Shown here: piece by piece, positions 12,024-22,291 of the stretch
Layout of the letters: each line of letters starts with the position of its first letter
Numbering within the stretch: position 1 is the first letter of the stretch
Assembly (NCBI GenBank): GCA_015492305.1
Contig: WGFJ01000140.1
Span: forward strand, 287 to 64,286
DNA: 64,000 nucleotides
Reading direction: 5' to 3'
Origin: Deltaproteobacteria bacterium
Lineage (GTDB): Bacteria > Desulfobacterota > GWC2-55-46 > S146-80
Program-made: the position numbers and the translations under genes
Notes under the pieces: generated by a model
Seen by the model: the letters and a program-made list of their open reading frames with translations, nothing else
Database searches by the model: none
What the model was told of the DNA's origin: nothing

Positions 12024-13187
12024 TTATCTCATAGAGACCCACTCAAGGGGGTCCCTTGGCATACCGTGGTACCGTATCTCAAAGTAGAGGCGGGGTCCTT
12101 TCAGGGACCCTGTATCTCCCACAAGGGCCACTACCTCACCCTTTTCCACCTCCTCCCCGACCTTCTTGAGTATCTCCGAGAGGTGGGCAAAGACGGTGTA
12201 GTACCCGTCTCCATGGTCGATGATCATGGTGAGACCGTATCCACCGAACCAGTCGGCAAATATGACCTTCCCATGGTATACTGCCCTTACCTTCGCACCC
12301 ATGGGTGCCTTTATCTCTATCCCCTTGTTGAATATGGGGGCATTGAACCTTGGATCTCTCCTCTTCCCGTAGAAGGAGACAACCGTCCCCTTTACAGGCA
12401 TCTTGAGGGAGCCCTTCATGGATGGAAAGCCCCTTCCAGAAGACCCCCTTCCATACCTCCTCCTCAACTCCTCTATCCTTGATGTGAGTCTCAGGGAGGC
12501 ATCCTCCATCTCCTTGAGGGCTATAAGGCTGAGTTCTCTATTGCTCCTTATGGTCCTGAGGACCTTCCTCCTCCTGGCCTTCTGAGAGAGCAGTTCACGT
12601 CTTCTGTCCCTGAGTCTTTCCTTTAACGCAAGCAGCCCCTTTTCCCTCTTTCTGAGCCGCTCCACTTCAGAGGCCAGTTCCTCCTGTATGGTGTGGTATG
12701 TCTCCATGAGGTTGAGATCATACCTTGCAAGGGCCTCAAGGTATCGGTACCTGCGCTCAAGGGAGGGCAGGTCCTGAGAGGAGAAGAGGAAGTCCACCAT
12801 CCTTCCCCTCTGCATCTTGTAGGCCACAACCACCCTCTGCTTCAACCTCTCCCTGAGGGAGACCTTCTTTGCCCTCAACCCCTCTATCCTCTCCTTAAGG
12901 AGTCTTACCTCTCCTTTCAGGTCCTCTATCCTCTCCTCTACCTCCCTGAGGGCCCTCTCCTTCTCCTTGATCTCCCTGTCCATGGCGGCTATGGCCTCAA
13001 TGAGGGACCTCTCCTTCAACCCGAGGGCCCTGAGCCTCTCCTTTCTTGCCCTGATGGCATCCTGCAACTCCACCAGTTCCCTCTCTTTCCTGACAAGCTC
13101 CTTCTTGAGCCCCCCTGCCTCACCCCAGACCCTGAGGGGGACAAGGAGGGTAAGGAGGGTAAGGGGCAATATCCACCAACTCCTCAC
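12024..13187 (-). CDS. envC: murein hydrolase activator EnvC-like M23 peptidase with coiled-coil region
   Basis: Signal peptide, a long coiled-coil region, and a C-terminal LytM/M23 domain (IIDHGDGYYTVFAHLSE). Confidence 0.85.
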   Translation of the reverse strand: MRSWWILPLTLLTLLVPLRVWGEAGGLKKELVRKERELVELQDAIRARKERLRALGLKERSLIEAIAAMDREIKEKERALREVEERIEDLKGEVRLLKERIEGLRAKKVSLRERLKQRVVVAYKMQRGRMVDFLFSSQDLPSLERRYRYLEALARYDLNLMETYHTIQEELASEVERLRKREKGLLALKERLRDRRRELLSQKARRRKVLRTIRSNRELSLIALKEMEDASLRLTSRIEELRRRYGRGSSGRGFPSMKGSLKMPVKGTVVSFYGKRRDPRFNAPIFNKGIEIKAPMGAKVRAVYHGKVIFADWFGGYGLTMIIDHGDGYYTVFAHLSEILKKVGEEVEKGEVVALVGDTGSLKGPRLYFEIRYHGMPRDPLEWVSMR

Positions 13188-13188
13188 C

Positions 13189-14097
13189 TCAGGCTGCCTC
13201 CAGAAACCTCTTCACGGCAAAGGAACTGCCGGCGATCCCAAGGGCCCCACCAAGGAGGACCATGAAGAGGAGAAGCCCTGCCATGGGCACACGTGGAGAG
13301 GGGTTGCCACTCAGTATCATGAAGAAGGGACCGAGTTTCGGGAAGATCGCAGAATGCAACCCAAGGACTATGAGGGCACCTGTAAAGGCACCTATCGTGC
13401 CCTGAAGGAAGCCTTCTATAAGGAAGGGCATCTTTATGAACCTTTCCGTGGCACCAACGAGTTCCATGATCTCTATCTCATCCTTCCTCGAAAACATGGT
13501 CAGCCTGATGGTATTTGAGACGATAAGCACAATGGTGAGGAAGAGGAAGAGGCTCAGGGCAACAAGGGATACCCTGAAGAGCTTCAGGATGGTGGCAAGC
13601 CTCTTTAACCATTGCCCTCCAAAATCCACATCCTCAACCCCCTTGAGCCTCCCTATCTCCCTGGCTATCCTCTCCACACCCTCCACCTCCATGCCACTCC
13701 TCACTCTCACCTCAAGCGAAGATGGAAGGGGGTTCTCGTCAAGGTCCTCCACCACATCGGAAAGGCTTGAAAGCTCCCTTTTGAAGAGTCTGTAGGCCTC
13801 TTCCTTTGAAATATACCTTACTCCTTCAACTCCGTCAATAGCCCTGATCCGGTCCATGAGTGCCTTCAGGGTGGCCCTATCGATCCCTTCCTCCAGGTAT
13901 GCACTGATACCCATCCTCTCCTCCCACCTGTCAACCACCCCTTTTGTGTAGAGGAAGAGGAGGGAGAAGATCCCGAAGATGGCCATGGAGAAGGTGATGA
14001 TAACTACCGTGACTATGTTAAGGAACAGGTGCCTCTTTATGCCCTTCAGCGCCTTTGCGAGGAAGTAGTAAGGATAGTTAACCCCCCTCATCACCAT
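13189..14097 (-). CDS. ftsX: cell division permease-like protein FtsX
   Basis: Four-TM FtsX architecture immediately after ftsE. Confidence 0.85.
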   Translation of the reverse strand: MVMRGVNYPYYFLAKALKGIKRHLFLNIVTVVIITFSMAIFGIFSLLFLYTKGVVDRWEERMGISAYLEEGIDRATLKALMDRIRAIDGVEGVRYISKEEAYRLFKRELSSLSDVVEDLDENPLPSSLEVRVRSGMEVEGVERIAREIGRLKGVEDVDFGGQWLKRLATILKLFRVSLVALSLFLFLTIVLIVSNTIRLTMFSRKDEIEIMELVGATERFIKMPFLIEGFLQGTIGAFTGALIVLGLHSAIFPKLGPFFMILSGNPSPRVPMAGLLLFMVLLGGALGIAGSSFAVKRFLEAA

Positions 14098-14117
14098 CCC
14101 ATGAGACCCCTGAAGGA

Positions 14118-14798
14118 TCAGGTCCCCTCCGCCACCCTCTCTGTGGCCTCAACAACCCTGCCCCTGTCAAGGCCAATGACCCTGTTACCGTATCTTGAGA
14201 CCAGTTCGTAGTTATGGGTGGCCATCACTATGGTGGTGCCCCTGGTGTTGATCTCCTCAAATATCTCCATGATGCGGCATGCCATCTCGTTATCCAGGTT
14301 GCCTGTAGGTTCATCGGCAAGGAGTATCTTCGGTTCCTTTACAAGGGCCCTTGCTATGGCCACCCTCTGCTGCTCACCACCGGAAAGGACAGCGGCCTTC
14401 CTGGCCATCTTGCCGTGGAGCCCCACCATCCCGAGGACACGGAGGACCCTCTTCCTTATCTCCCTTGGCGGTGTGCCAAGGGCCTCCAGGGCAAAGGCGA
14501 CATTTTCATAGACCGTCCAGTGAGGTATGAGCTTGAAGTCCTGGAATACAAGACCTATGTTCCTCCTGAAGAAGGGCACCTCCTTCCTGGGAAGCTTGAT
14601 GAGGTTCCTCCCATCTATGATGATCTGACCGGAGGTGGGTCTCTCCTCACGGAAGAGGAGGCGTAAAAGGGTGGTCTTCCCGGCCCCGCTTGGCCCTGTG
14701 AGAAAGGCAAACTCACCCTTCTCTATGTGGAGACTGACCTCGTGAAGGGCTGTTACCCCTTCGGGATACCTCTTTGAGACCCTAAAAAGACGGATCAT
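14118..14798 (-). CDS. ftsE: cell division ATP-binding protein FtsE
   Basis: ABC ATPase with Walker A (GPSGAGKTT), signature motif (LSGGEQQR) and Walker B. Confidence 0.9.
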
Positions 14799-15235: not shown

Positions 15236-15480
15236 CCTCCTGAAAAGGGTGGAAGGAAGGCCACCTCATCTCCGTCCTTTATCACCGTTTCAGGGGTGGC
15301 AAACTCCTGGTTGACCGAGACAAGAAGCCTCCGCCCCCTCAGGTACTCCTCCATCTGGGGAAACATCTCCATCACCTTCTCCTCCAGATCCCTGAGGGTG
15401 ATGTTCCCGGAAACGGGTATCTCCACCACCTCTTTGCCCACCCGGTCTTTGAGAATGGCAAAGAATCTTACCCTTACCAT
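15232..15480 (-). CDS. moaD: molybdopterin synthase sulfur-carrier subunit MoaD (ThiS/MoaD fold)
   Basis: An 82-aa protein ending in Gly-Gly that is translationally coupled to moaE. Confidence 0.75.
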   Translation of the reverse strand: MVRVRFFAILKDRVGKEVVEIPVSGNITLRDLEEKVMEMFPQMEEYLRGRRLLVSVNQEFATPETVIKDGDEVAFLPPFSGG

Positions 15481-15606
15481 AGCATCTCTCCATCAGATTT
15501 TGTAAATATTACCAGAATATGGGAAAAAGACCAATGAAAATCGTTTCATCAAGGAGGGAGGTCCCTCCCAGATATGGCAGATCAGGAAGGAACCACGGGA
15601 GGGAAG

Positions 15607-16509
15607 CTATCTAATTTGTGGCACGATCCACTTTCCATCTATGCGACAGGCAAGACCGTAGTATCTCCCTTTTATATCCCCTGAGGTGACGGTCTGGCGG
15701 TACCTGCGGCAGTAGAGGCCACCCTTTGTCCTGAAGGTACCGAGAGACACCACCTCTCCAGACACGCCACTATCAGGATCGGCCCACCTCACTGGCACAC
15801 CACTTCTGTTGAACTCAAGGGCCCTCTGAAAGCTGTCATCCATAAGTCTCACTGCCTGTTGAGGGAGACTGTCACGGGGTGGAAGGACTGCAAGGAGTTC
15901 CACCCGTCTTTCAGGCTTCCTCTTCACATTCCTGATAAACACCACATAGTGTCCCACCTCCGGGACGTAGTACCAGGTTCGTATCTCCCGTAACCTGTAT
16001 CTCCTGTTAAACCTCTTGCACTCGATCTTCCATGCATTGAAGTCTCCTATAAGTACAGATATACGCTCCCCACCAATCACCCTACAGAACCAGTACCTGT
16101 AGTAAGGCCTTTCAGGTCCATCAAGCTCCCGCCACCGTCCTTTTTCAAGGAAGTTAAAGGACCTGCCAGGATACAGAGGCCAGAGAGAGTCTGATCCATC
16201 TTTGCCGAAGACACCTGGAAGGGGAGAGAAGGACCTCCTGCCCTCTCTTTTCCTTGTCTTCCAGGATGAAGCAGGCAGTATGAAATCCCTTGATCCCCTG
16301 TAGATCTTTCCACGGTGATTCACCCAGAAGACCTCTCCTCCCCTTACCTCTGTAACCCTTTCCCATCCTCCATTGGAGTATAGATAGGTAGTGCCTTTGA
16401 CATAAAGGGGAAGGTCCGGTCCCTGGAGATCAGGCCTTACACCCTGTATCCCCCCAATACAGCCTGGAAGTACAGCTATCAGCAGAAGGAGAATTACGAT
16501 ACGACCCAT
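15607..16509 (-). CDS. lipoprotein with C-terminal 17-kDa-surface-antigen-like domain
   Basis: Lipobox LPGC. C-terminus …GTFRTKGGLYCRRYRQTV…GRYYGLACRIDGKWIV carries the YCRxY / ACRxxDGxW motif pattern I recognise from 17-kDa surface-antigen (COG4520-type) domains. Confidence 0.6.
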   Translation of the reverse strand: MGRIVILLLLIAVLPGCIGGIQGVRPDLQGPDLPLYVKGTTYLYSNGGWERVTEVRGGEVFWVNHRGKIYRGSRDFILPASSWKTRKREGRRSFSPLPGVFGKDGSDSLWPLYPGRSFNFLEKGRWRELDGPERPYYRYWFCRVIGGERISVLIGDFNAWKIECKRFNRRYRLREIRTWYYVPEVGHYVVFIRNVKRKPERRVELLAVLPPRDSLPQQAVRLMDDSFQRALEFNRSGVPVRWADPDSGVSGEVVSLGTFRTKGGLYCRRYRQTVTSGDIKGRYYGLACRIDGKWIVPQIR

Positions 16510-16523
16510 CGATCAAACCCCTC

Positions 16524-17159
16524 CTACATGTTTTTGTCCACATCTCCAAAGAGTATCATCCTGGTCCTCCACCGCCCTTCAGGGGTCCTGTATGCAAGTC
16601 CATACACCTCCTGCCTACCCCTCCCATGGACCACCTCTATCCGATACTGTCGATAGTAACGTCCCTCCCTGTCCCGGTAGGTCTTTACAGGGGTAACAAC
16701 GACCCTGTAACCATTCCTCTGTGGTGTCCAGACCATGGACTTGCCACTTACATTAAACTCGAGGACCTCATTCACCACATCATCCAGTTCAGTCTGGAAG
16801 GGCAGAGAGAGCGCCGGTTGCCTCACCCTTTCCCTGTCCAGTAACAGGCCTGCCCCAAACCCAAGGATTACCATCACAATCCCTGCAGCGATCCTGATCA
16901 GTCCCGATCTGAGACCGTTCTTCCCACTTTCTACCCTGTGGGACCTTATCCCATCCACCACCTCTTCCGGCACCTCTTCTTCATTCAAAAGCCTCTTCAT
17001 GCTGGCCTTCAGCCTTGCATTCACACATACCGCCTCAAGAAAGCGGGCCCGCACCTCTCCATCCCTTCTCAGGGCCTCTTCAACCTCATCCATCTCCTGA
17101 GGCTCCAGCTCCCCATCGATATAGGCTGAAAGCCTGATCTCATCGACCCTCCTATTCAT
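16524..17159 (-). CDS. anti-sigma factor (single TM) with periplasmic 17-kDa-antigen-like domain
   Basis: N-terminal anti-sigma domain (LSAYIDGELEPQEMDEVEEAL), one TM segment, and a C-terminal domain (…YYRQYRIEVVHGRGRQEVYGLAYRTPEGRWRT) homologous to the C-terminus of the downstream lipoprotein. Overlaps the ECF sigma stop. Confidence 0.7.
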   Translation of the reverse strand: MNRRVDEIRLSAYIDGELEPQEMDEVEEALRRDGEVRARFLEAVCVNARLKASMKRLLNEEEVPEEVVDGIRSHRVESGKNGLRSGLIRIAAGIVMVILGFGAGLLLDRERVRQPALSLPFQTELDDVVNEVLEFNVSGKSMVWTPQRNGYRVVVTPVKTYRDREGRYYRQYRIEVVHGRGRQEVYGLAYRTPEGRWRTRMILFGDVDKNM

Positions 17160-17724
17160 CGTTGCACACCTCCTCAGCAGCCCTGTAACTCCTGGCCCTT
17201 AGGTTGCCGTAAAACAGATCGGCCAGCATCTTTCTGGCCCTCGCAACACGGCTTGCCACAGTTCCTGCTGGTATGCCAAGGATATCTGCAGTCTCTGCGT
17301 AGGAGTATCCCTCCACACATACCAGCATGATGACCACCCTGTGTTCCTCCGGAAGAAGTCCAAAGGCCTTCCTGATATCCAGGGATATATCTATCGGGAC
17401 CTCCCTCCTCTTCCTCTCCATGCCTGCTTCGTAGATGGCATTCCTGTTGTAAAGGTTCTGGGTCCTTGTCCTGCGGAGCCCATCGAGCCAGCAGGTATAG
17501 AGGATCCTGAAGACCCAGCCATCGAAGTTCGTGCCATCCTTGAACTGATCGAAACGGCTGAGGACCTTCTCACAGGCCATCTGAACCAGTTCATCTGCCC
17601 TTTCCCCATCCTTGGCGATACCCATGGCAAAGCGCCGCAGGCGCGGAAGGAGGTCAACAAGCCTGTCCTTGAGCATCTCCTTCCGCACTTTGCCATCCAT
17701 GGAGGGTCCCCCCTGTGACCTCAC
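17152..17724 (-). CDS. RNA polymerase ECF-type sigma-70 factor
   Basis: Sigma-70 region 2 and region 4 motifs (…FDGWVFRILYTCWLD…; LPEEHRVVIMLVCVEGYSYAETADILGIPAGTVASR). Confidence 0.9.
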   Translation of the reverse strand: MRSQGGPSMDGKVRKEMLKDRLVDLLPRLRRFAMGIAKDGERADELVQMACEKVLSRFDQFKDGTNFDGWVFRILYTCWLDGLRRTRTQNLYNRNAIYEAGMERKRREVPIDISLDIRKAFGLLPEEHRVVIMLVCVEGYSYAETADILGIPAGTVASRVARARKMLADLFYGNLRARSYRAAEEVCNDE

Positions 17725-18443
17725 CGGATCCCACCCGGGGCCTGACCGGAAGGTGAGGTGCCTGTAGTCCCTTCTGTTGAACCACCACCTGTTGAACCGG
17801 TTGCACCACCTCCAGTCTGATCAGAGGCGGTTCCGGATGAACCCCAGTTGCCGACAAGTCCAGCCTCCTCGGCAGCCGAGACTGGAGAGAGATCACCGAT
17901 ACCACCTATCCCAATACCTACAGAACCGGGACCACTACCCTGACCCATGGAGTGGCTCTCATCATCGTTGTGGCTACCTCTGGATGAGCTATGGTCATCC
18001 GAGTCGTGCCCCTCATCACTTGAATGATCGTCATCTTCACCCTCATTGTGGTCATCTCCAGAGTGATCATCGTCCTCACCATCGTGGCCTGAACTGTCAT
18101 CGCTGCCATCACCATCGTCATCGCCATCGCTACTGCCGTCGTCATCCCCAGAGCCGCCATCACCACTATCACCATCATCACCACTGCTGTCACCATCGCC
18201 GCTATCACCGTCACCGCCGCCATCACCGTCACCATCCCCACCATCGCCGCCTCCGTCTCCCCCACCATCTCCATCTCCACCATCATCCGCCATGGTTACA
18301 GACTTGGACCATCCCATCTTCTTTGCATCGAAGTGGTATGGAAAGGCAATGATTGCAAGGGCGTAAAAGAACACAAGGAAGGTAAAAACCATCCTCTGGA
18401 CCGGGCCCCTGCAGCTGGCAAAGAGTTCTCTCAACCATGTCAT
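17721..18443 (-). CDS. membrane-anchored low-complexity acidic protein (Asp/Gly/Ser/His-rich), possible metal-binding protein
   Basis: One N-terminal TM helix followed by about 200 aa of D/G/S repeats and an H-D-E-rich block (HDGEDDDHSGDDHNEGEDDDHSSDEGHDSDDH). Same strand as its neighbours and its stop overlaps the ECF sigma start. The alternative frames of the repeat tract give implausible H/R-rich or M/V/T-rich ORFs. Confidence 0.45.
   Translation of the reverse strand: MTWLRELFASCRGPVQRMVFTFLVFFYALAIIAFPYHFDAKKMGWSKSVTMADDGGDGDGGGDGGGDGGDGDGDGGGDGDSGDGDSSGDDGDSGDGGSGDDDGSSDGDDDGDGSDDSSGHDGEDDDHSGDDHNEGEDDDHSSDEGHDSDDHSSSRGSHNDDESHSMGQGSGPGSVGIGIGGIGDLSPVSAAEEAGLVGNWGSSGTASDQTGGGATGSTGGGSTEGTTGTSPSGQAPGGIR
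17990..18290. repeat. imperfect GAT/GGT/GGC-type triplet-repeat tract (coding microsatellite)
   Basis: About 300 bp of 3-nt periodic low-complexity DNA that gives rise to the D/G-rich protein and to the spurious overlapping ORFs on both strands. Confidence 0.7.
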
Positions 18444-18538
18444 GGCTCAAACCTCCTTCCTCAAAGTCTCCTCTCACCCTTTATAACGATCCAGAGGGGT
18501 ATTTTCTTCCACCCTTATCGGAGCCCCTTCACAATCCT

Positions 18539-19633
18539 TTAACCCTGCCGATGCCTGTACCACACATTGCAGGTCCCATCGAAGGATACCATGCAGGGCC
18601 CATAAGGGGTTTGGGGGGTGCACCTCCTGCCAAAGAGGGGGCAGGAGGGAGGATCTATCTTGCCTATCATGATGAGGTGGCAGGAACAGCCAGGGTTGAG
18701 ATCAAGGGAAGGCTCTCTCAAATCGATGGAGAAGCGCTTCCTTGCATCGATCCTGTCATATTCACCCTTCAAGATAAGCCCTGACCTTGGAAGCCTTCCT
18801 ATCCCCCTCCAGTAGGCATCCGAAACGGTGAAGACCTCCGCCATTGCCTCCTTTGCCTTCCTGTTGCCAGCCTCCTTTACAGCCCTCCTGTATGCGTTCT
18901 CACACAGGGCCTTACCATCCTTTATCTGCCTTCCTATCATGAGGATCGCCGTAAGCACATCAACAGGCTCAAAACCTGCCGACACAACAGGCATCCCGTA
19001 TGCCTCTGGGAAGATCCGGTACTCCTCAAGGCCCATCACGGTGGTCACATGACCGGGGATGATGAACCCGTCTATCCTTATATCACCCACACCAAGGAGG
19101 AACTCCATGGCAGGGGGGATGAGTCTGTGGGACACGAGGAAACTCAGGTTCCTGGGCACCCCCTGAAGGATCATGGCCGCCACCCCGCAGGCGGTGGTCT
19201 CGAAACCAACGGAAAAGAAGACCACCTCCTCTGTGGGATTCCTCTCCGCAAGCTGGAGGGCATCGAAGGGGCTGTAAACGATCCTCACATCCCCGCCCCT
19301 TGCCTTTGCATCCAGGAGGGAACCGGAAGGGGTTGGTATCCTCACCATGTCCCCAAAGGTGGCGAGGATCACCCCCTTTTCAAGGGAGAGCCTCATGGCC
19401 ATCTCTATGTCCTCCACAGGGCAGACACAGACAGGGCATCCAGGCCCTGCTATCACCCTGATGGTCGAGGGAAGGAGTTCTCTCAGGCCAAAACGGGCTA
19501 TACTGTTCTCATGGGTCCCGCAGACATGCATGATCCTTATGGACCTTGGCATGGAGAGGGACCTCAGGGCTTCAACAACCCTTTCCACAAGGGCGCTATC
19601 TCTGAAAGGCTCAACAACCCCCATGGTCTTCAA
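18539..19633 (-). CDS. hypD: [NiFe]-hydrogenase maturation factor HypD
   Basis: HypD hallmark motifs MHVCGTHE and GPGCPVCV, plus C-terminal Cys motifs. 364 aa. Confidence 0.9.
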   Translation of the reverse strand: MKTMGVVEPFRDSALVERVVEALRSLSMPRSIRIMHVCGTHENSIARFGLRELLPSTIRVIAGPGCPVCVCPVEDIEMAMRLSLEKGVILATFGDMVRIPTPSGSLLDAKARGGDVRIVYSPFDALQLAERNPTEEVVFFSVGFETTACGVAAMILQGVPRNLSFLVSHRLIPPAMEFLLGVGDIRIDGFIIPGHVTTVMGLEEYRIFPEAYGMPVVSAGFEPVDVLTAILMIGRQIKDGKALCENAYRRAVKEAGNRKAKEAMAEVFTVSDAYWRGIGRLPRSGLILKGEYDRIDARKRFSIDLREPSLDLNPGCSCHLIMIGKIDPPSCPLFGRRCTPQTPYGPCMVSFDGTCNVWYRHRQG

Positions 19634-21503
19634 GGATGGTGGGATCCGGTATCCGCACAGGTCTTATCCCCTCGAGGTCTCCCTCAAGCCCCTCAGGGAT
19701 GTCAAAGCTGCTCCTCACAAGGGAAGGCAGATCTGGAGGAAGGGAAGAGGTTGCCTTCCTGAAAAGCTCTGCATAGAGGGAAAGTTTCTTCCTCCTCCCG
19801 GAAGGGGTATCGTTGTGGCGCATCGTGAGCCTCGGGATCATGTAAAGGGCCTCTTCAAGGGTATGGGCCACATAGAGGAGGCTCGAGGGATGGGTGGTAA
19901 CCTCAAGGGTCTCATCGAGACGGGCATCCCTTATGAGGGACACCTCCTCACCCTCGAACCTTACACCGTATCCCCTTCCCCTTGGCCCGAGAAGCACCGG
20001 GATGCCAAGCCTCATGGCACCGAACAGTGTGGCAAGGGCCTTCTGGGTGAAGCCACCCCACAGGACCAGAAGGGCCCCGACCCTGTTCAATATGTAGTCG
20101 GCTATCCCCCTGTAGTTCCCCTCGATAGGGCGATGGGAGACCACAGAGGCTATCTTTATGCAGGCACCGATGAAGTGGGAGGCAGAAAGGCAGGAACCGA
20201 GGTTCACCAGATTGCCGGCATCGAAATCATCCCCATGGGCCTGGAAGAGAGGGCTACCCTTGCCTATCTCTATGGCCGAACACCCCCCTGTTGCCACCAC
20301 AAAACCCATGGAGAGGAGTTCCCTTGCAAGCCTCTGGATATCCGATGGGTCCTCTTCAGGACAGCCGAAGAGCCCAACAAGTCCCGGTATCTCGCCCATC
20401 ACTATGGAAGGGGCTATCCCCCTTATCTCCCCATCCCTCACAGGGCCTCTGCCTATCCTCAAGATCCCCCTTTCTCCTTCCATCTTCTTACTGTCGAAGC
20501 TGGAGGCAACTATGAGAGAGACCTCTGCCGCCTTTCCTTTATGGAAGATGACCCCCTTCCCCTCAAGGGATAGTCTTTCTGCTGCCTCTTCCGGTGACAG
20601 TGGAGTGAGGTCCTTGAGGCCAAGGACGGTCTCCTGGGCCGTTGCGATGACGGGTATACCCATCCTGCCAGCCGTCTCCACCACATCTGGCCTGATACAC
20701 TGGGTATCGAGGATCACAAGGTCCGCTATACCGGAGGCAACTATGGGTATCTGATCCGCCTGGTTCCCTATGATCCTGAGGCCGTGGTGGTGGCGGGAGA
20801 GATCATGGGCTGCACAGCAAAGCCCCCCGACATCGATCTTCCCCTCAAGGCCCCTCTCCTTCAAGAGCCTCAGGATCTCAACACCCACATGGGAGTTGTG
20901 GCCTATGACAAGGATAAGGGGCCTCCCTTTCCCTCCTATACCAGCAAGGGGGGAGTTGGATTCACCCCTTGGCATACCAAGGGCAGAGATCTGGATCACA
21001 TCACCCACCTCAAGGGCAAGGTTGTCAAGCATACCTGCATGGAGGGCCTTGCTCACAAAGTCAAGAAGCTCCCCTTCCCCACCGTAGTGGATCGATGAGA
21101 GCAGGTGTGCCAGCTCTTCCTCTATGTAGTCTATTATGGCCTCAACCTCACCTGCCCTCTCCGGTCTCGCACCTGTGATGAGGGTGCAGAGGGGGGTCCT
21201 GATGCCACTTTTCCCCATGTCTATAGAAAAGTCCCCGAACCTCTCGGTAAGGTCCCTGAAAACCCTCCTTGCAAGGGAGGTATGTCCTGAAAGACCGATA
21301 ACCACTTGGAGGAGAAGAGCCCTTCCCAGAAAGCCCTCCCTCTTGATACCGCACCTGCCCTTTCCCCCTTCTTTGAAGCTGCATGGACCAAGGGCACAGA
21401 GGGTACAGACCTTCGATGGAAGGGAGAGGTGGGGTTTGTATGTCCTGAGTAGCCTCAGATCCCAGCTTCTAAGGGTGGAGATGTCGGGAAGGCCAGAGAT
21501 CAT
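19611..21503 (-). CDS. Ni-CODH/HCP-superfamily protein, CooS-like (carbon-monoxide dehydrogenase catalytic-subunit family)
   Basis: N-terminal C-x2-C-x4-GPC-x9-CG motif (CTLCALGPC…GRCG) as in CooS B/D-cluster ligands. Later GHN…GLCCAAHDL…DTQCIRP…GGC…GSC blocks align with CooS C-cluster ligand positions. 630 aa. The 3' end overlaps hypD by 23 bp. Confidence 0.55.
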   Translation of the reverse strand: MISGLPDISTLRSWDLRLLRTYKPHLSLPSKVCTLCALGPCSFKEGGKGRCGIKREGFLGRALLLQVVIGLSGHTSLARRVFRDLTERFGDFSIDMGKSGIRTPLCTLITGARPERAGEVEAIIDYIEEELAHLLSSIHYGGEGELLDFVSKALHAGMLDNLALEVGDVIQISALGMPRGESNSPLAGIGGKGRPLILVIGHNSHVGVEILRLLKERGLEGKIDVGGLCCAAHDLSRHHHGLRIIGNQADQIPIVASGIADLVILDTQCIRPDVVETAGRMGIPVIATAQETVLGLKDLTPLSPEEAAERLSLEGKGVIFHKGKAAEVSLIVASSFDSKKMEGERGILRIGRGPVRDGEIRGIAPSIVMGEIPGLVGLFGCPEEDPSDIQRLARELLSMGFVVATGGCSAIEIGKGSPLFQAHGDDFDAGNLVNLGSCLSASHFIGACIKIASVVSHRPIEGNYRGIADYILNRVGALLVLWGGFTQKALATLFGAMRLGIPVLLGPRGRGYGVRFEGEEVSLIRDARLDETLEVTTHPSSLLYVAHTLEEALYMIPRLTMRHNDTPSGRRKKLSLYAELFRKATSSLPPDLPSLVRSSFDIPEGLEGDLEGIRPVRIPDPTILEDHGGC

Positions 21504-21614: not shown

Positions 21615-22013
21615 ATGCGAAGGATAACCGAAAGATGGCTAAAGCAGGCAGAGGCAGACCTTTCTGCAGCAATGGATAGCCTTGAAGATGGGCATTATGA
21701 GTGGTGCTGTTTTCAAGCACAGCAATCAGCAGAAAAGGCCCTGAAGGCCTTTTTATACGAACATGGCTATACATCAGTAATCACCCATTCTTTAAAGGAA
21801 CTTATAAGGGAGTGCTCGAAGATAGAAGGAGGCCTTTCCTCTCTTTCTACAGAGGCAAGGAAACTTGATATGTTCTACATTCCCACAAGGTATCCTAACG
21901 GTCTGGGTGGAGACCTTGCTCCAGTTGAATTTTATGAAGAGGAAGATGCAAGGGAATGCCTAAGCTATGCAGAATCGATATTGAAAGAAGTGAAGAAGTA
22001 CTTGAAGAGTTGA
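21615..22013 (+). CDS. HEPN domain protein (putative toxin/RNase component)
   Basis: HEPN-like helical protein of 132 aa paired with a downstream nucleotidyltransferase. Lies in a local AT-rich islet. Confidence 0.6.
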   Translation: MRRITERWLKQAEADLSAAMDSLEDGHYEWCCFQAQQSAEKALKAFLYEHGYTSVITHSLKELIRECSKIEGGLSSLSTEARKLDMFYIPTRYPNGLGGDLAPVEFYEEEDARECLSYAESILKEVKKYLKS

Positions 22014-22291
22014 AAGGGTTCATCAATAAACTGAAGGAAACCCTCCCAGTGGATGAGGTCTATCTATACGGTTCTTTTGCAAAGGGCCAGGTCCATGAAG
22101 GCAGTGACATTGATCTCATAATAGTGGGTAACTTTCGAGAGAGATTCTTTGAGAGGATAGGAAGGATACTCGACATGACAGATCTGCCTGTAGAACCCCT
22201 TGTCTATACCCATGAAGAGTTTCAAAGGATGAAGGATGAAGGGAATCCCTTTATCAAAGAAGTGCTGAAAGAAGCGAAAAAACTTCTGTAG
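21956..22291 (+). CDS. nucleotidyltransferase (MNT) domain protein, partner of HEPN
   Basis: Pol-beta-like nucleotidyltransferase motif GSFAKG…SDIDL. An alternative TTG start at 22010 would give a 4-bp TTGA overlap with the HEPN stop. Confidence 0.65.
   Translation: MPKLCRIDIERSEEVLEELKGFINKLKETLPVDEVYLYGSFAKGQVHEGSDIDLIIVGNFRERFFERIGRILDMTDLPVEPLVYTHEEFQRMKDEGNPFIKEVLKEAKKLL

Follow-up and report, generated by a model that had tools for sequence, protein, structure and literature searches.

A four-gene ECF sigma cassette with a polyanionic protein and a shared 17-kDa-antigen-type domain as a candidate envelope-signalling unit

Bacteria rely to a large extent on pairs of ECF sigma and anti-sigma factors for envelope signalling, and for most groups of such pairs the input is unknown. 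In the window, i.e. the whole 64-kb stretch of DNA that was analysed, such a pair is flanked by genes for an acidic membrane protein and a lipoprotein and follows hypD. This arrangement raises the question whether the four genes respond to metals in the service of hydrogenase maturation or form a signalling unit of their own, and what the anti-sigma factor would then perceive. Evidence from sequence and gene neighbourhoods supports the view that the four genes represent a widely conserved functional unit, and its position beside hypD looks incidental.

Layout of the cassette and its products

According to the open reading frame calls, the four minus-strand genes lie where a sequence-only reading had placed them and are tightly packed, and their junctions agree with the translational coupling, or near coupling, ascribed to them by that reading. 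The features of the region are as follows.

18539-19633, minus strand: hypD, ending 95 nt upstream of the acidic protein gene
18485-18510, minus strand: predicted ECF-type promoter (-35 and -10 elements GGAAGAA-N15-CGTT) in the gap between hypD and the acidic protein gene, ending 42 nt upstream of the ATG of the latter
17721-18443, minus strand: open reading frame of the acidic protein (240 aa; membrane-anchored, polyanionic, low-complexity)
18336-18392, minus strand: hydrophobic anchor near the N-terminus of the acidic protein (about residues 18-36; hydropathy)
17949-18293, minus strand: D/G/S(H) repeat region of the acidic protein (residues 51-165; composition)
17841-17891, minus strand: conserved short motif LSPVSAAEEAGLVGNWG of the acidic protein (residues 185-201)
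17152-17724, minus strand: gene for an ECF (group IV) sigma-70 factor (190 aa from GTG)
16524-17159, minus strand: gene for a single-pass anti-sigma factor (211 aa)
16842-16904, minus strand: transmembrane helix of the anti-sigma factor (residues ~86-106; single segment by hydropathy)
16560-16787, minus strand: periplasmic PF16998-like sensor of the anti-sigma factor (residues ~125-200)
15607-16509, minus strand: gene for a basic lipoprotein (300 aa) with the lipobox LPGC at Cys17
15883-16392, minus strand: YmcC/GfcB-fold beta domain of the lipoprotein (residues 40-209)
15619-15861, minus strand: PF16998 domain of the lipoprotein (residues 217-297)
15560-15594, minus strand: GC-rich hairpin directly 3' of the lipoprotein stop codon (predicted stem GGUUCCUUCC/GGGAGGGACC)

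The acidic protein and sigma genes overlap by 4 nt, or are separated by 20 nt if the sigma factor starts at the alternative ATG at 17700 (182 aa, as called in the source contig). The anti-sigma gene extends over the sigma stop codon with an 8-nt overlap, and a gap of 14 nt precedes the lipoprotein gene. The GC-rich hairpin is a possible, albeit weak, candidate for the operon end; it is devoid of a clear U-tract, its fragment z-score is only -0.68 and it was not called by the terminator scan. In the region 15300-18700, scanning for sigma-70 promoters and terminators yielded nothing above shuffled expectation, and an Rfam scan of the whole window returned zero RNA families and hence no riboswitch or other RNA leader.

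Upstream of the acidic protein gene, the consensus GGAWRAA-N15-CGTT finds its sole match within the 64-kb window (0.03 expected). In related loci the same consensus occurs 27 times in 483 kb, against 0.58 expected, and orthologous acidic protein genes are preceded by it in the corresponding place. From sequence, the cassette is predicted to stand behind a conserved ECF promoter of its own, located between hypD and the acidic protein gene. Further copies of the motif lie 5' of paralogous lipoprotein genes (L010, L013, L029), of a gene for a 10-haem cytochrome (L011) and of a cytochrome-like gene (L005); the predicted regulon beyond the operon differs among genomes.

The sigma factor comprises regions 2 and 4 only (Sigma70_r2, E 2.5e-10; Sigma70_r4_2, E 4.3e-15; TIGR02937, 81.8 bits against a cut-off of 42.9), and its 190 aa lie within the range of about 170-200 aa that is typical of group IV factors. 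Such factors are further marked by a neighbouring gene for the cognate anti-sigma factor and by autoregulation from a promoter with an AAC-like -35 and a CGT -10 element; the adjoining anti-sigma gene and the GGAWRAA-N15-CGTT site upstream of the operon, predicted in silico only, agree with this. In the anti-sigma factor, residues 9-31 match zf-HC2 (23.9 bits against a cut-off of 22.2), and an anti-sigma domain of this kind at the N-terminus, with a single transmembrane helix behind it, is the architecture of class I membrane anti-sigma factors. The zinc motif H-x3-C-x2-C is absent from the N-terminal 60 residues, which contain a single Cys; hence, the protein is regarded as a non-zinc member of the ZAS/zf-HC2 type.

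The acidic protein matched no Pfam or NCBIfam family. Its single hydrophobic segment spans approximately residues 14-40 by hydropathy, and since Arg residues lie on the N-terminal side of the anchor, the acidic region of this inner-membrane-anchored protein is implied to face the periplasm. In two orthologues (L013, L039) the anchor is replaced by a twin-arginine-like export signal, RRxALAxLG. With 42 D, 35 G, 20 S and 8 H, residues 51-165 reach a net charge of -46; they are encoded by imperfect tandem repeats of 6-33 nt, and this region is hypervariable in both sequence and length across orthologues. The short motif further downstream is followed in the window's protein by a G/S/T-rich tail of 39 aa. 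All that acidic proteins have in common is the N-terminal anchor and this motif, LSPVSxxEEAxLVGNW, of which a variant without Trp ('cl6') occurs in Desulfobulbales.

Linkage in relatives and the hydrogenase question

A survey of gene neighbourhoods corroborated the proposed linkage of the four genes. The order acidic protein, sigma factor, anti-sigma factor and lipoprotein is kept in about 25 loci from Desulfobacterota and metagenomes (L001-L017, L029, L034, L044-L059), and more distant loci, including L041 and L043, contain all four parts in divergent or rearranged form. In addition, a scan of metagenomes with the back-translated motif recovered 12 acidic proteins, and all of those with enough flanking DNA (11/11) are encoded next to an ECF sigma gene. 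A minimal version is present in one alphaproteobacterial genome (L039), in which a motif-bearing low-complexity protein and a sigma/anti-sigma pair occur together with a PF16998-only lipoprotein of 120 aa; the motif protein thus accompanies PF16998 also in the absence of a YmcC-like domain.

Across relatives, the acidic protein gene lies upstream of either the sigma gene or the lipoprotein gene. The latter arrangement is that of Desulfobulbales loci (including L018-L025, L030, L031 and L033), where the acidic protein gene directly precedes the lipoprotein gene and tblastn detected no sigma or anti-sigma gene between the two or elsewhere in the locus. Moreover, both proteins are fused into one chain in 11 protein clusters (P0018-P0028). 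Because the acidic protein and the lipoprotein are found together without the regulators, and also fused, they look, by sequence, like the older core pair of the system.

The same survey bears on the proposal of a metal-responsive unit tied to hydrogenase maturation, in which a D/G/H-rich protein would bind Ni or Zn and be co-transcribed with hypD. In this genome the cassette indeed follows hypD on the same strand at a distance of 95 nt, downstream of a cluster comprising NiFe hydrogenase genes, hypA and hypC, with no terminator predicted after hypD, and the acidic segment carries its 8 His amid Asp. On the other hand, tblastn detected hypD, cdhA, moaD and moaE in 0/34 related loci; linkage to hyp genes is confined to the source contig, and moaDE is retained by a relative of 79% identity. 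The neighbours found in relatives are mutually unrelated (cytochromes, NapA/NapD, EF-G, AsmA), and the cassette is preceded by its own conserved promoter. The description of the acidic protein as D/G/H-rich holds with respect to its acidic, D/G-rich character but overstates its His content, which amounts to 9 of 240 residues. In relatives His is sporadic, and many orthologues contain none at all, being poly-D or D/G/S only, so that Ni or His-mediated binding was rejected as a conserved property. Neither the hydrogenase link nor the Ni response is thus upheld, and this reading is considered very improbable. Multihaem cytochromes were likewise rejected as a universal partner, as they occur in some loci only (L001, L002, L011 and one JGI contig) and not in the window.

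The shared PF16998-type domain and its candidate ligand

The sequence-only reading had further claimed that the C-termini of the anti-sigma factor and the lipoprotein are homologous and belong to the 17-kDa-antigen type. Direct comparison substantiates the homology, with 38% identity over 88 aa in BLASTP (E 7e-11) and a profile-profile probability of 98.6% in hhalign (E 1.1e-15, 71 columns). The family found by HMM search is PF16998 (17kDa_Anti_2), of which the lipoprotein is a member (27.3 bits against a gathering score of 26.6); the window's anti-sigma factor stays below this threshold at 19.2-21.7 bits. Farther full-length relatives of the anti-sigma factor, combining zf-HC2 with a PF16998-type domain, score above it, and PF16998 was matched by 11/11 domains sampled from both protein classes. 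The domain features invariant Trp, Arg and Tyr residues. It also occurs twice in a Trypsin_2 protein, which hints at a peptide- or protein-binding role. Searches of PDB sequences with profiles of the lipoprotein and of the shared domain gave no meaningful match.

The reading that we favour, tentatively and at somewhat less than even confidence, is a self-contained and self-regulated envelope-signalling cassette in which the acidic protein is a binding partner of both PF16998 domains, so that its free or occupied share is read out by the anti-sigma factor. Binding would be mediated by the LSPVSxxEEAxLVGNW motif, by negative charge or by both. Given such binding, the lipoprotein and the anti-sigma factor would be rivals for one partner. 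Should the acidic chain become more or less abundant or occupied, possibly because cations or polycations neutralise it, the lipoprotein is lost or the envelope is altered, the occupancy of the anti-sigma sensor would shift as well. Inactivation of the anti-sigma factor would follow, presumably through the kind of regulated proteolysis that acts on other single-pass anti-sigma factors, and the freed sigma factor would raise transcription of the entire cassette and, in some genomes, of genes for paralogous lipoproteins and for c-type cytochromes of the periplasm. Physiologically, this would most likely serve periplasmic cation or envelope homeostasis and not hydrogenase maturation. A more specific version, in which the disordered polyanionic periplasmic protein is the sensing element, its motif is the ligand shared by both PF16998 domains, and competitive sequestration with cation- or envelope-dependent availability sets sigma activity, is possible but rather doubtful.

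The charges of the proteins would suit such an interaction, since a lipoprotein of +23 (pI 10.2) and anti-sigma sensors that all have a pI of 9.2-9.9 face an acidic region of -46, and in fused forms most bodies are close to neutral (net -6 to +8), in keeping with this trend. The trend is not universal, as three unfused lipoproteins are near neutral too. In an AF2 model of a natural acidic protein-lipoprotein fusion (P0028), the acidic part is of low confidence, with a pLDDT of about 50 in the motif region, and docking was not predicted.

Two other readings make use of the same shared domain. In the first, which corresponds to the homotypic sensor/ligand pair suggested earlier, the PF16998 domain of the lipoprotein would pair with that of the anti-sigma factor and shield it from the site-1 protease in the manner of RseB, and the acidic protein would merely modulate or localise the lipoprotein. 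The lipoprotein, however, retains both PF16998 and its acidic partner in lineages lacking an adjoining anti-sigma gene as well as in the fusion proteins. This argues for a role of the domain that is independent of the anti-sigma factor, and we regard the shielding function as unlikely. The second envisages one common ligand for both domains, a small molecule or a product of the envelope instead of the acidic protein, with the anti-sigma factor sensing it and the induced lipoprotein and acidic protein forming a protective output, e.g. by ligand or cation binding or buffering, a logic resembling that of BlaR1 and beta-lactamase. A domain common to sensor and operon-encoded effector, a sigma-dependent predicted promoter preceding all members of the operon, and invariant Trp, Arg and Tyr residues that could make a ligand pocket are in accordance with this proposal. 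It leaves unexplained, however, why the short motif is the sole conserved part of the exported region of the acidic protein, why PF16998 proteins are accompanied by this motif down to the minimal version and why the acidic protein is fused to a lipoprotein body; we consider it quite unlikely. Within the favoured reading of a shared acidic partner, the earlier idea that the lipoprotein imitates the anti-sigma sensor domain, or is its competitor, stays alive, because the sensor domain is shared and the pairing is kept even in the minimal alphaproteobacterial version.

Relation to known systems

The four-gene cassette is apparently unstudied so far. A literature search on the shared domain family and on anti-sigma factors that carry it found no description of the module, and the paper that reclassified ECF sigma factors does not mention it in its main text. 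The earlier assertion of novelty accordingly stands for the module but not for the anti-sigma architecture itself, which is common in databases (450 clusters of full-length relatives at 50% identity, E<=1e-10). With the tempting but unsupported link to hydrogenase maturation removed, the cassette supplies explicit candidate inputs, i.e. a polyanionic disordered protein with a single motif and a lipoprotein copying the sensor domain, as well as a recognisable promoter that might drive reporters, which renders its signalling logic directly testable.

Among ECF sigma factors, those of the EcfG type are similar in several respects: 5uxx is the closest solved sigma structure by sequence (E 2.7e-19), together with SigH of M. 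tuberculosis; similarity to PhyR_sigma2 of Pfam is detectable; and the -10 element CGTT is alike. Promoters of EcfG-type factors follow GGAAC-N16/17-CGTT, whereas the -35 element here is GGATAAA. Furthermore, the partner is not NepR but a membrane anti-sigma factor of 211 aa with a zf-HC2-type N-terminus, and no receiver-domain PhyR gene is present in the operon or nearby, which sets the cassette apart from the EcfG/NepR/PhyR general stress response.

The sigmaE-RseA-RseB system of E. coli and AlgU-MucA-MucB of P. aeruginosa share with the cassette an autoregulated ECF sigma factor and a single-pass anti-sigma factor, co-transcribed with an accessory protein of the periplasm whose fold is LolA-like, an open beta-barrel. 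Peptide motifs at the C-termini of envelope proteins probably take part in triggering these systems. In the test for membership of the RseB/MucB guards, no match to the MucB_RseB sequence family was obtained.

The core pair, in turn, resembles E. coli GfcA-GfcB (YmcD-YmcC) and YjbE-YjbF of group 4 capsule/exopolysaccharide operons, in which the gene of a YmcC-fold lipoprotein is directly preceded by that of a membrane or secreted protein which is small and of low complexity (PMC8592465). The window's lipoprotein shows the YmcC fold of YjbF/GfcB lipoproteins but no match to PF11102 at E<=1, for which E. coli GfcB itself scored 234 bits, and hhalign gave 1.5% probability against E. coli GfcB. 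No partner gene of the GfcC/YjbG, GfcD/YjbH or Wza-like type was recognised in the neighbourhoods examined. In contrast to GfcA/YjbE, the low-complexity protein is acidic instead of Thr-rich and bears a conserved motif, and beyond what the GfcB/YjbF systems contain, the cassette comes with an ECF switch and an additional domain, PF16998.

The shared C-terminal domain belongs to the family of the rickettsial 17-kDa genus-common antigen, or 'RT0821/Lpp0805 family surface protein' (PF16998, PF16587), which has long been in use as a rickettsial diagnostic marker and which, to our knowledge, is functionally uncharacterised and has no known ligand. If the motif of the acidic protein were its ligand, peptide-motif binding would be the first molecular function assigned to this domain. 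The 17-kDa antigens are small stand-alone lipoproteins, whereas in the cassette both an anti-sigma factor and a YmcC-fold lipoprotein carry the domain as a fused part.

Organisation and predicted promoter of the cassette

Four genes on the minus strand are tightly packed, as the sequence-only reading had described, and a predicted promoter precedes them:

17721-18443, minus strand: acidic protein gene (ORF)
17152-17724, minus strand: ECF sigma gene (ORF; Pfam and NCBIfam)
16524-17159, minus strand: anti-sigma gene (ORF; zf-HC2-type N-terminus)
15607-16509, minus strand: lipoprotein gene (ORF; PF16998)
18485-18510, minus strand: predicted ECF-type promoter, GGAWRAA-N15-CGTT (pattern match in the gap between hypD and the acidic gene)

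The acidic gene, which begins 95 nt after the end of hypD, overlaps the sigma gene by 4 nt, or is separated from it by 20 nt if the ATG start of sigma is taken as in the source contig. Sigma and anti-sigma genes overlap by 8 nt, while 14 nt separate the latter from the lipoprotein gene. Pfam and NCBIfam confirmed the identity of the ECF sigma factor and the zf-HC2 type of the anti-sigma N-terminus; the lipoprotein matches PF16998 (17kDa_Anti_2) in Pfam, and the anti-sigma match is sub-threshold. The acidic protein carries a single N-terminal hydrophobic anchor followed by a D/G/S stretch of 115 residues, with a net charge of -46 and 8 histidines only, which is encoded by imperfect short tandem repeats.

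Regions upstream of acidic genes share the pattern gGGATAAAaa-N-CGTTat. For GGAWRAA-N15-CGTT, the 64-kb window has a single match (0.03 expected by chance) and 483 kb of related loci have 27 (0.58 expected), mostly just upstream of acidic genes. In locus L053 such a site precedes a stand-alone PF16998 gene, in L011 a divergent 10-haem cytochrome gene and in L005 a cytochrome-like gene, and the sigma gene of L043 has the close variant GGATAAG-N15-CGTT; the acidic-lipoprotein pairs of Desulfobulbales loci (group B below) have no such motif upstream. As judged from the pattern, the conserved site is the typical autoregulatory layout of ECF systems, so that the cassette would not need transcription of hypD. 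Lipoprotein paralogues lie beside the module at L010 5418-6302, L013 2900-3835 and L029 1959-2894. A separate GGATAAA-N15-CGTT site precedes each of them, and this points to sigma control of a small lipoprotein family.

The module often has periplasmic redox proteins encoded beside it (L011 6517-8250, minus strand; L001 1944-3695; L005 3557-4054; L010 11066-12380). They comprise multihaem cytochromes (10-haem and others; one carries a MopE copper-binding motif), a cytochrome c' and a cytochrome b561, and a predicted sigma-dependent promoter precedes two of their genes. No multihaem cytochrome is encoded in the window.

Conservation and genomic context

The four-gene cassette is real and ancient, and the literature searched apparently holds no description of it. 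Word-indexed protein searches returned few homologues, whose contigs show the same gene order with an upstream D/G-rich ORF ending LSPVSxxEEAxLVGNWG. Scanning one genome per species with a lipoprotein profile yielded 26 loci, all from Desulfobacterota, which were sorted into three groups by ORF tables and tblastn. In group A, made up of Desulfobacterales and relatives, the genes stand in the window order of acidic protein, sigma, anti-sigma and lipoprotein. In group B, which consists of Desulfobulbales (among them the cultured Desulfoprunum benzoelyticum and Desulfobulbus sp. Tol-SR), the lipoprotein gene directly follows the acidic gene without sigma or anti-sigma. In the third group, acidic protein and lipoprotein body form one fused chain of 490-534 aa; it covers Desulfosediminicola flagellatus, Desulfopila sp. 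IMCC35008 and another nine clusters. Since the two proteins are paired without regulators in group B and fused elsewhere, they are, on this comparative evidence, the core pair, to which sigma and anti-sigma appear to have been added.

When the profile of the full-length anti-sigma was used for an exhaustive HMM search, 450 clusters (50% identity) passed E<=1e-10 and 3167 passed E<=1e-3, with full-length coverage in most top matches; sampled relatives, one of them alphaproteobacterial, combine zf-HC2 and PF16998. The module recurred in all four loci of distant anti-sigma relatives examined. In L041 and L043 the motif recurs in an acidic protein whose gene is divergently transcribed, alongside sigma, anti-sigma and a lipoprotein homologue of 289-314 aa. 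The minimal form in L039 comprises a Gly/Ser-rich exported protein ending LSKDEEAAAIAKGWQ, a PF16998-only lipoprotein of 120 aa and sigma/anti-sigma. A Logan contig repeated the order sigma, anti-sigma, 326-aa gene. As an independent check, metagenomes were scanned with back-translated EEAGLVGNW: 12 of 16 matches were acidic proteins, and an ECF sigma gene followed all 11 motif-bearing acidic genes with enough flanking DNA. Some low-complexity orthologues (L013 10-498; L039 3750-4139 and 2658-3053) are Gly/Ser-rich, not Asp-rich, and start with a twin-arginine-like RRxALAxLG signal, not a plain hydrophobic anchor.

In the source contig, NiFe hydrogenase genes, hycI, hypA, hypC, a Prismane-like gene and hypD lie upstream of the cassette, and the earlier reading had suggested a metal-responsive unit, possibly for nickel, linked to hydrogenase maturation. 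In a relative with 79% identity moaDE is retained downstream; hypD, cdhA, moaD and moaE were found in none of the 34 related loci compared by tblastn, flanking genes vary from one locus to another, and many acidic-protein orthologues lack histidine. The suggested link to hydrogenase and nickel is thus not supported, and we conclude from the comparison of loci that the adjacency to hypD is probably incidental.

The neighbourhood has further features of its own. The Prismane/CdhA-like gene (19611-21503, minus strand; 630 aa; TIGR00314 545 bits, below the cut-off of 781) lies after hypC and before hypD, sharing 23 nt with the start of the latter, and is unusual in a cluster of hyp maturation genes. 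A toxin-antitoxin-like HEPN and nucleotidyltransferase pair (~21615-22291, plus strand) sits inside the hydrogenase/hyp cluster on the opposite strand, coinciding with a G+C dip to 0.45. Beyond moaDE, the strand that carries the module continues with ordinary cell-division and envelope genes (12024-14798, minus strand, and on downstream): ftsE, ftsX, an EnvC-like M23 peptidase, a CtpB-like S41 protease and a polysaccharide deacetylase.

The shared PF16998 domain and a possible mode of signalling

The C-termini of anti-sigma and lipoprotein share 38% identity over 88 residues (BLASTP, E 7e-11), and the homology claimed from sequence alone was borne out by profile-profile comparison (98.6% probability, E 1.1e-15). 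All 11 sampled domains, from both protein classes, match PF16998, with invariant Leu-Glu, Trp, Thr, Gly, Arg-x-Tyr, Gly, Arg and Trp. In the confident AF2 model of the lipoprotein (pLDDT 90.3, 29-sequence alignment), residues 40-209 form an all-beta N-domain, and one helix and a four- to five-stranded sheet make up the C-domain (217-297); sequence search found no solved relative of the PF16998 domain. In P0157, a 583-aa metagenome representative, a Trypsin_2 protease domain precedes two 17-kDa-antigen-type domains (PF16998, PF16587), which occupy the sites where PDZ domains normally stand in HtrA-family proteases.

We infer that the PF16998 domain may bind the acidic protein, because LSPVSxxEEAxLVGNW is the sole conserved part of the exported region and accompanies PF16998 proteins even where the YmcC-like lipoprotein N-domain is missing, because the charges of the separate proteins are complementary (-46 versus +23 and +5) and the fused-form bodies mostly near neutral, and because a trypsin-like protease with two such domains suggests a peptide-binding role. 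Anti-sigma and lipoprotein would then compete for the acidic chain, whose free or occupied state the anti-sigma would thereby report. Much of the same data would also be explained by an RseB-like guard, in which the two PF16998 domains pair directly, or by a non-protein ligand common to these domains; the AF2 model of a natural acidic-lipoprotein fusion showed no docking.

Among known systems, E. coli gfcA, upstream of gfcB, encodes a Thr-rich low-complexity membrane protein (PMC8592465), and gfcA-gfcB is a loose analogue of the acidic protein-lipoprotein pair. Neither GfcC nor GfcD, the partners in the Gfc system, was recognised in the loci examined here. Signalling by an ECF sigma/anti-sigma pair together with an accessory lipoprotein is of a known kind; the new features are three, namely the polyanionic partner protein, the domain common to sensor and lipoprotein, and the promoter.
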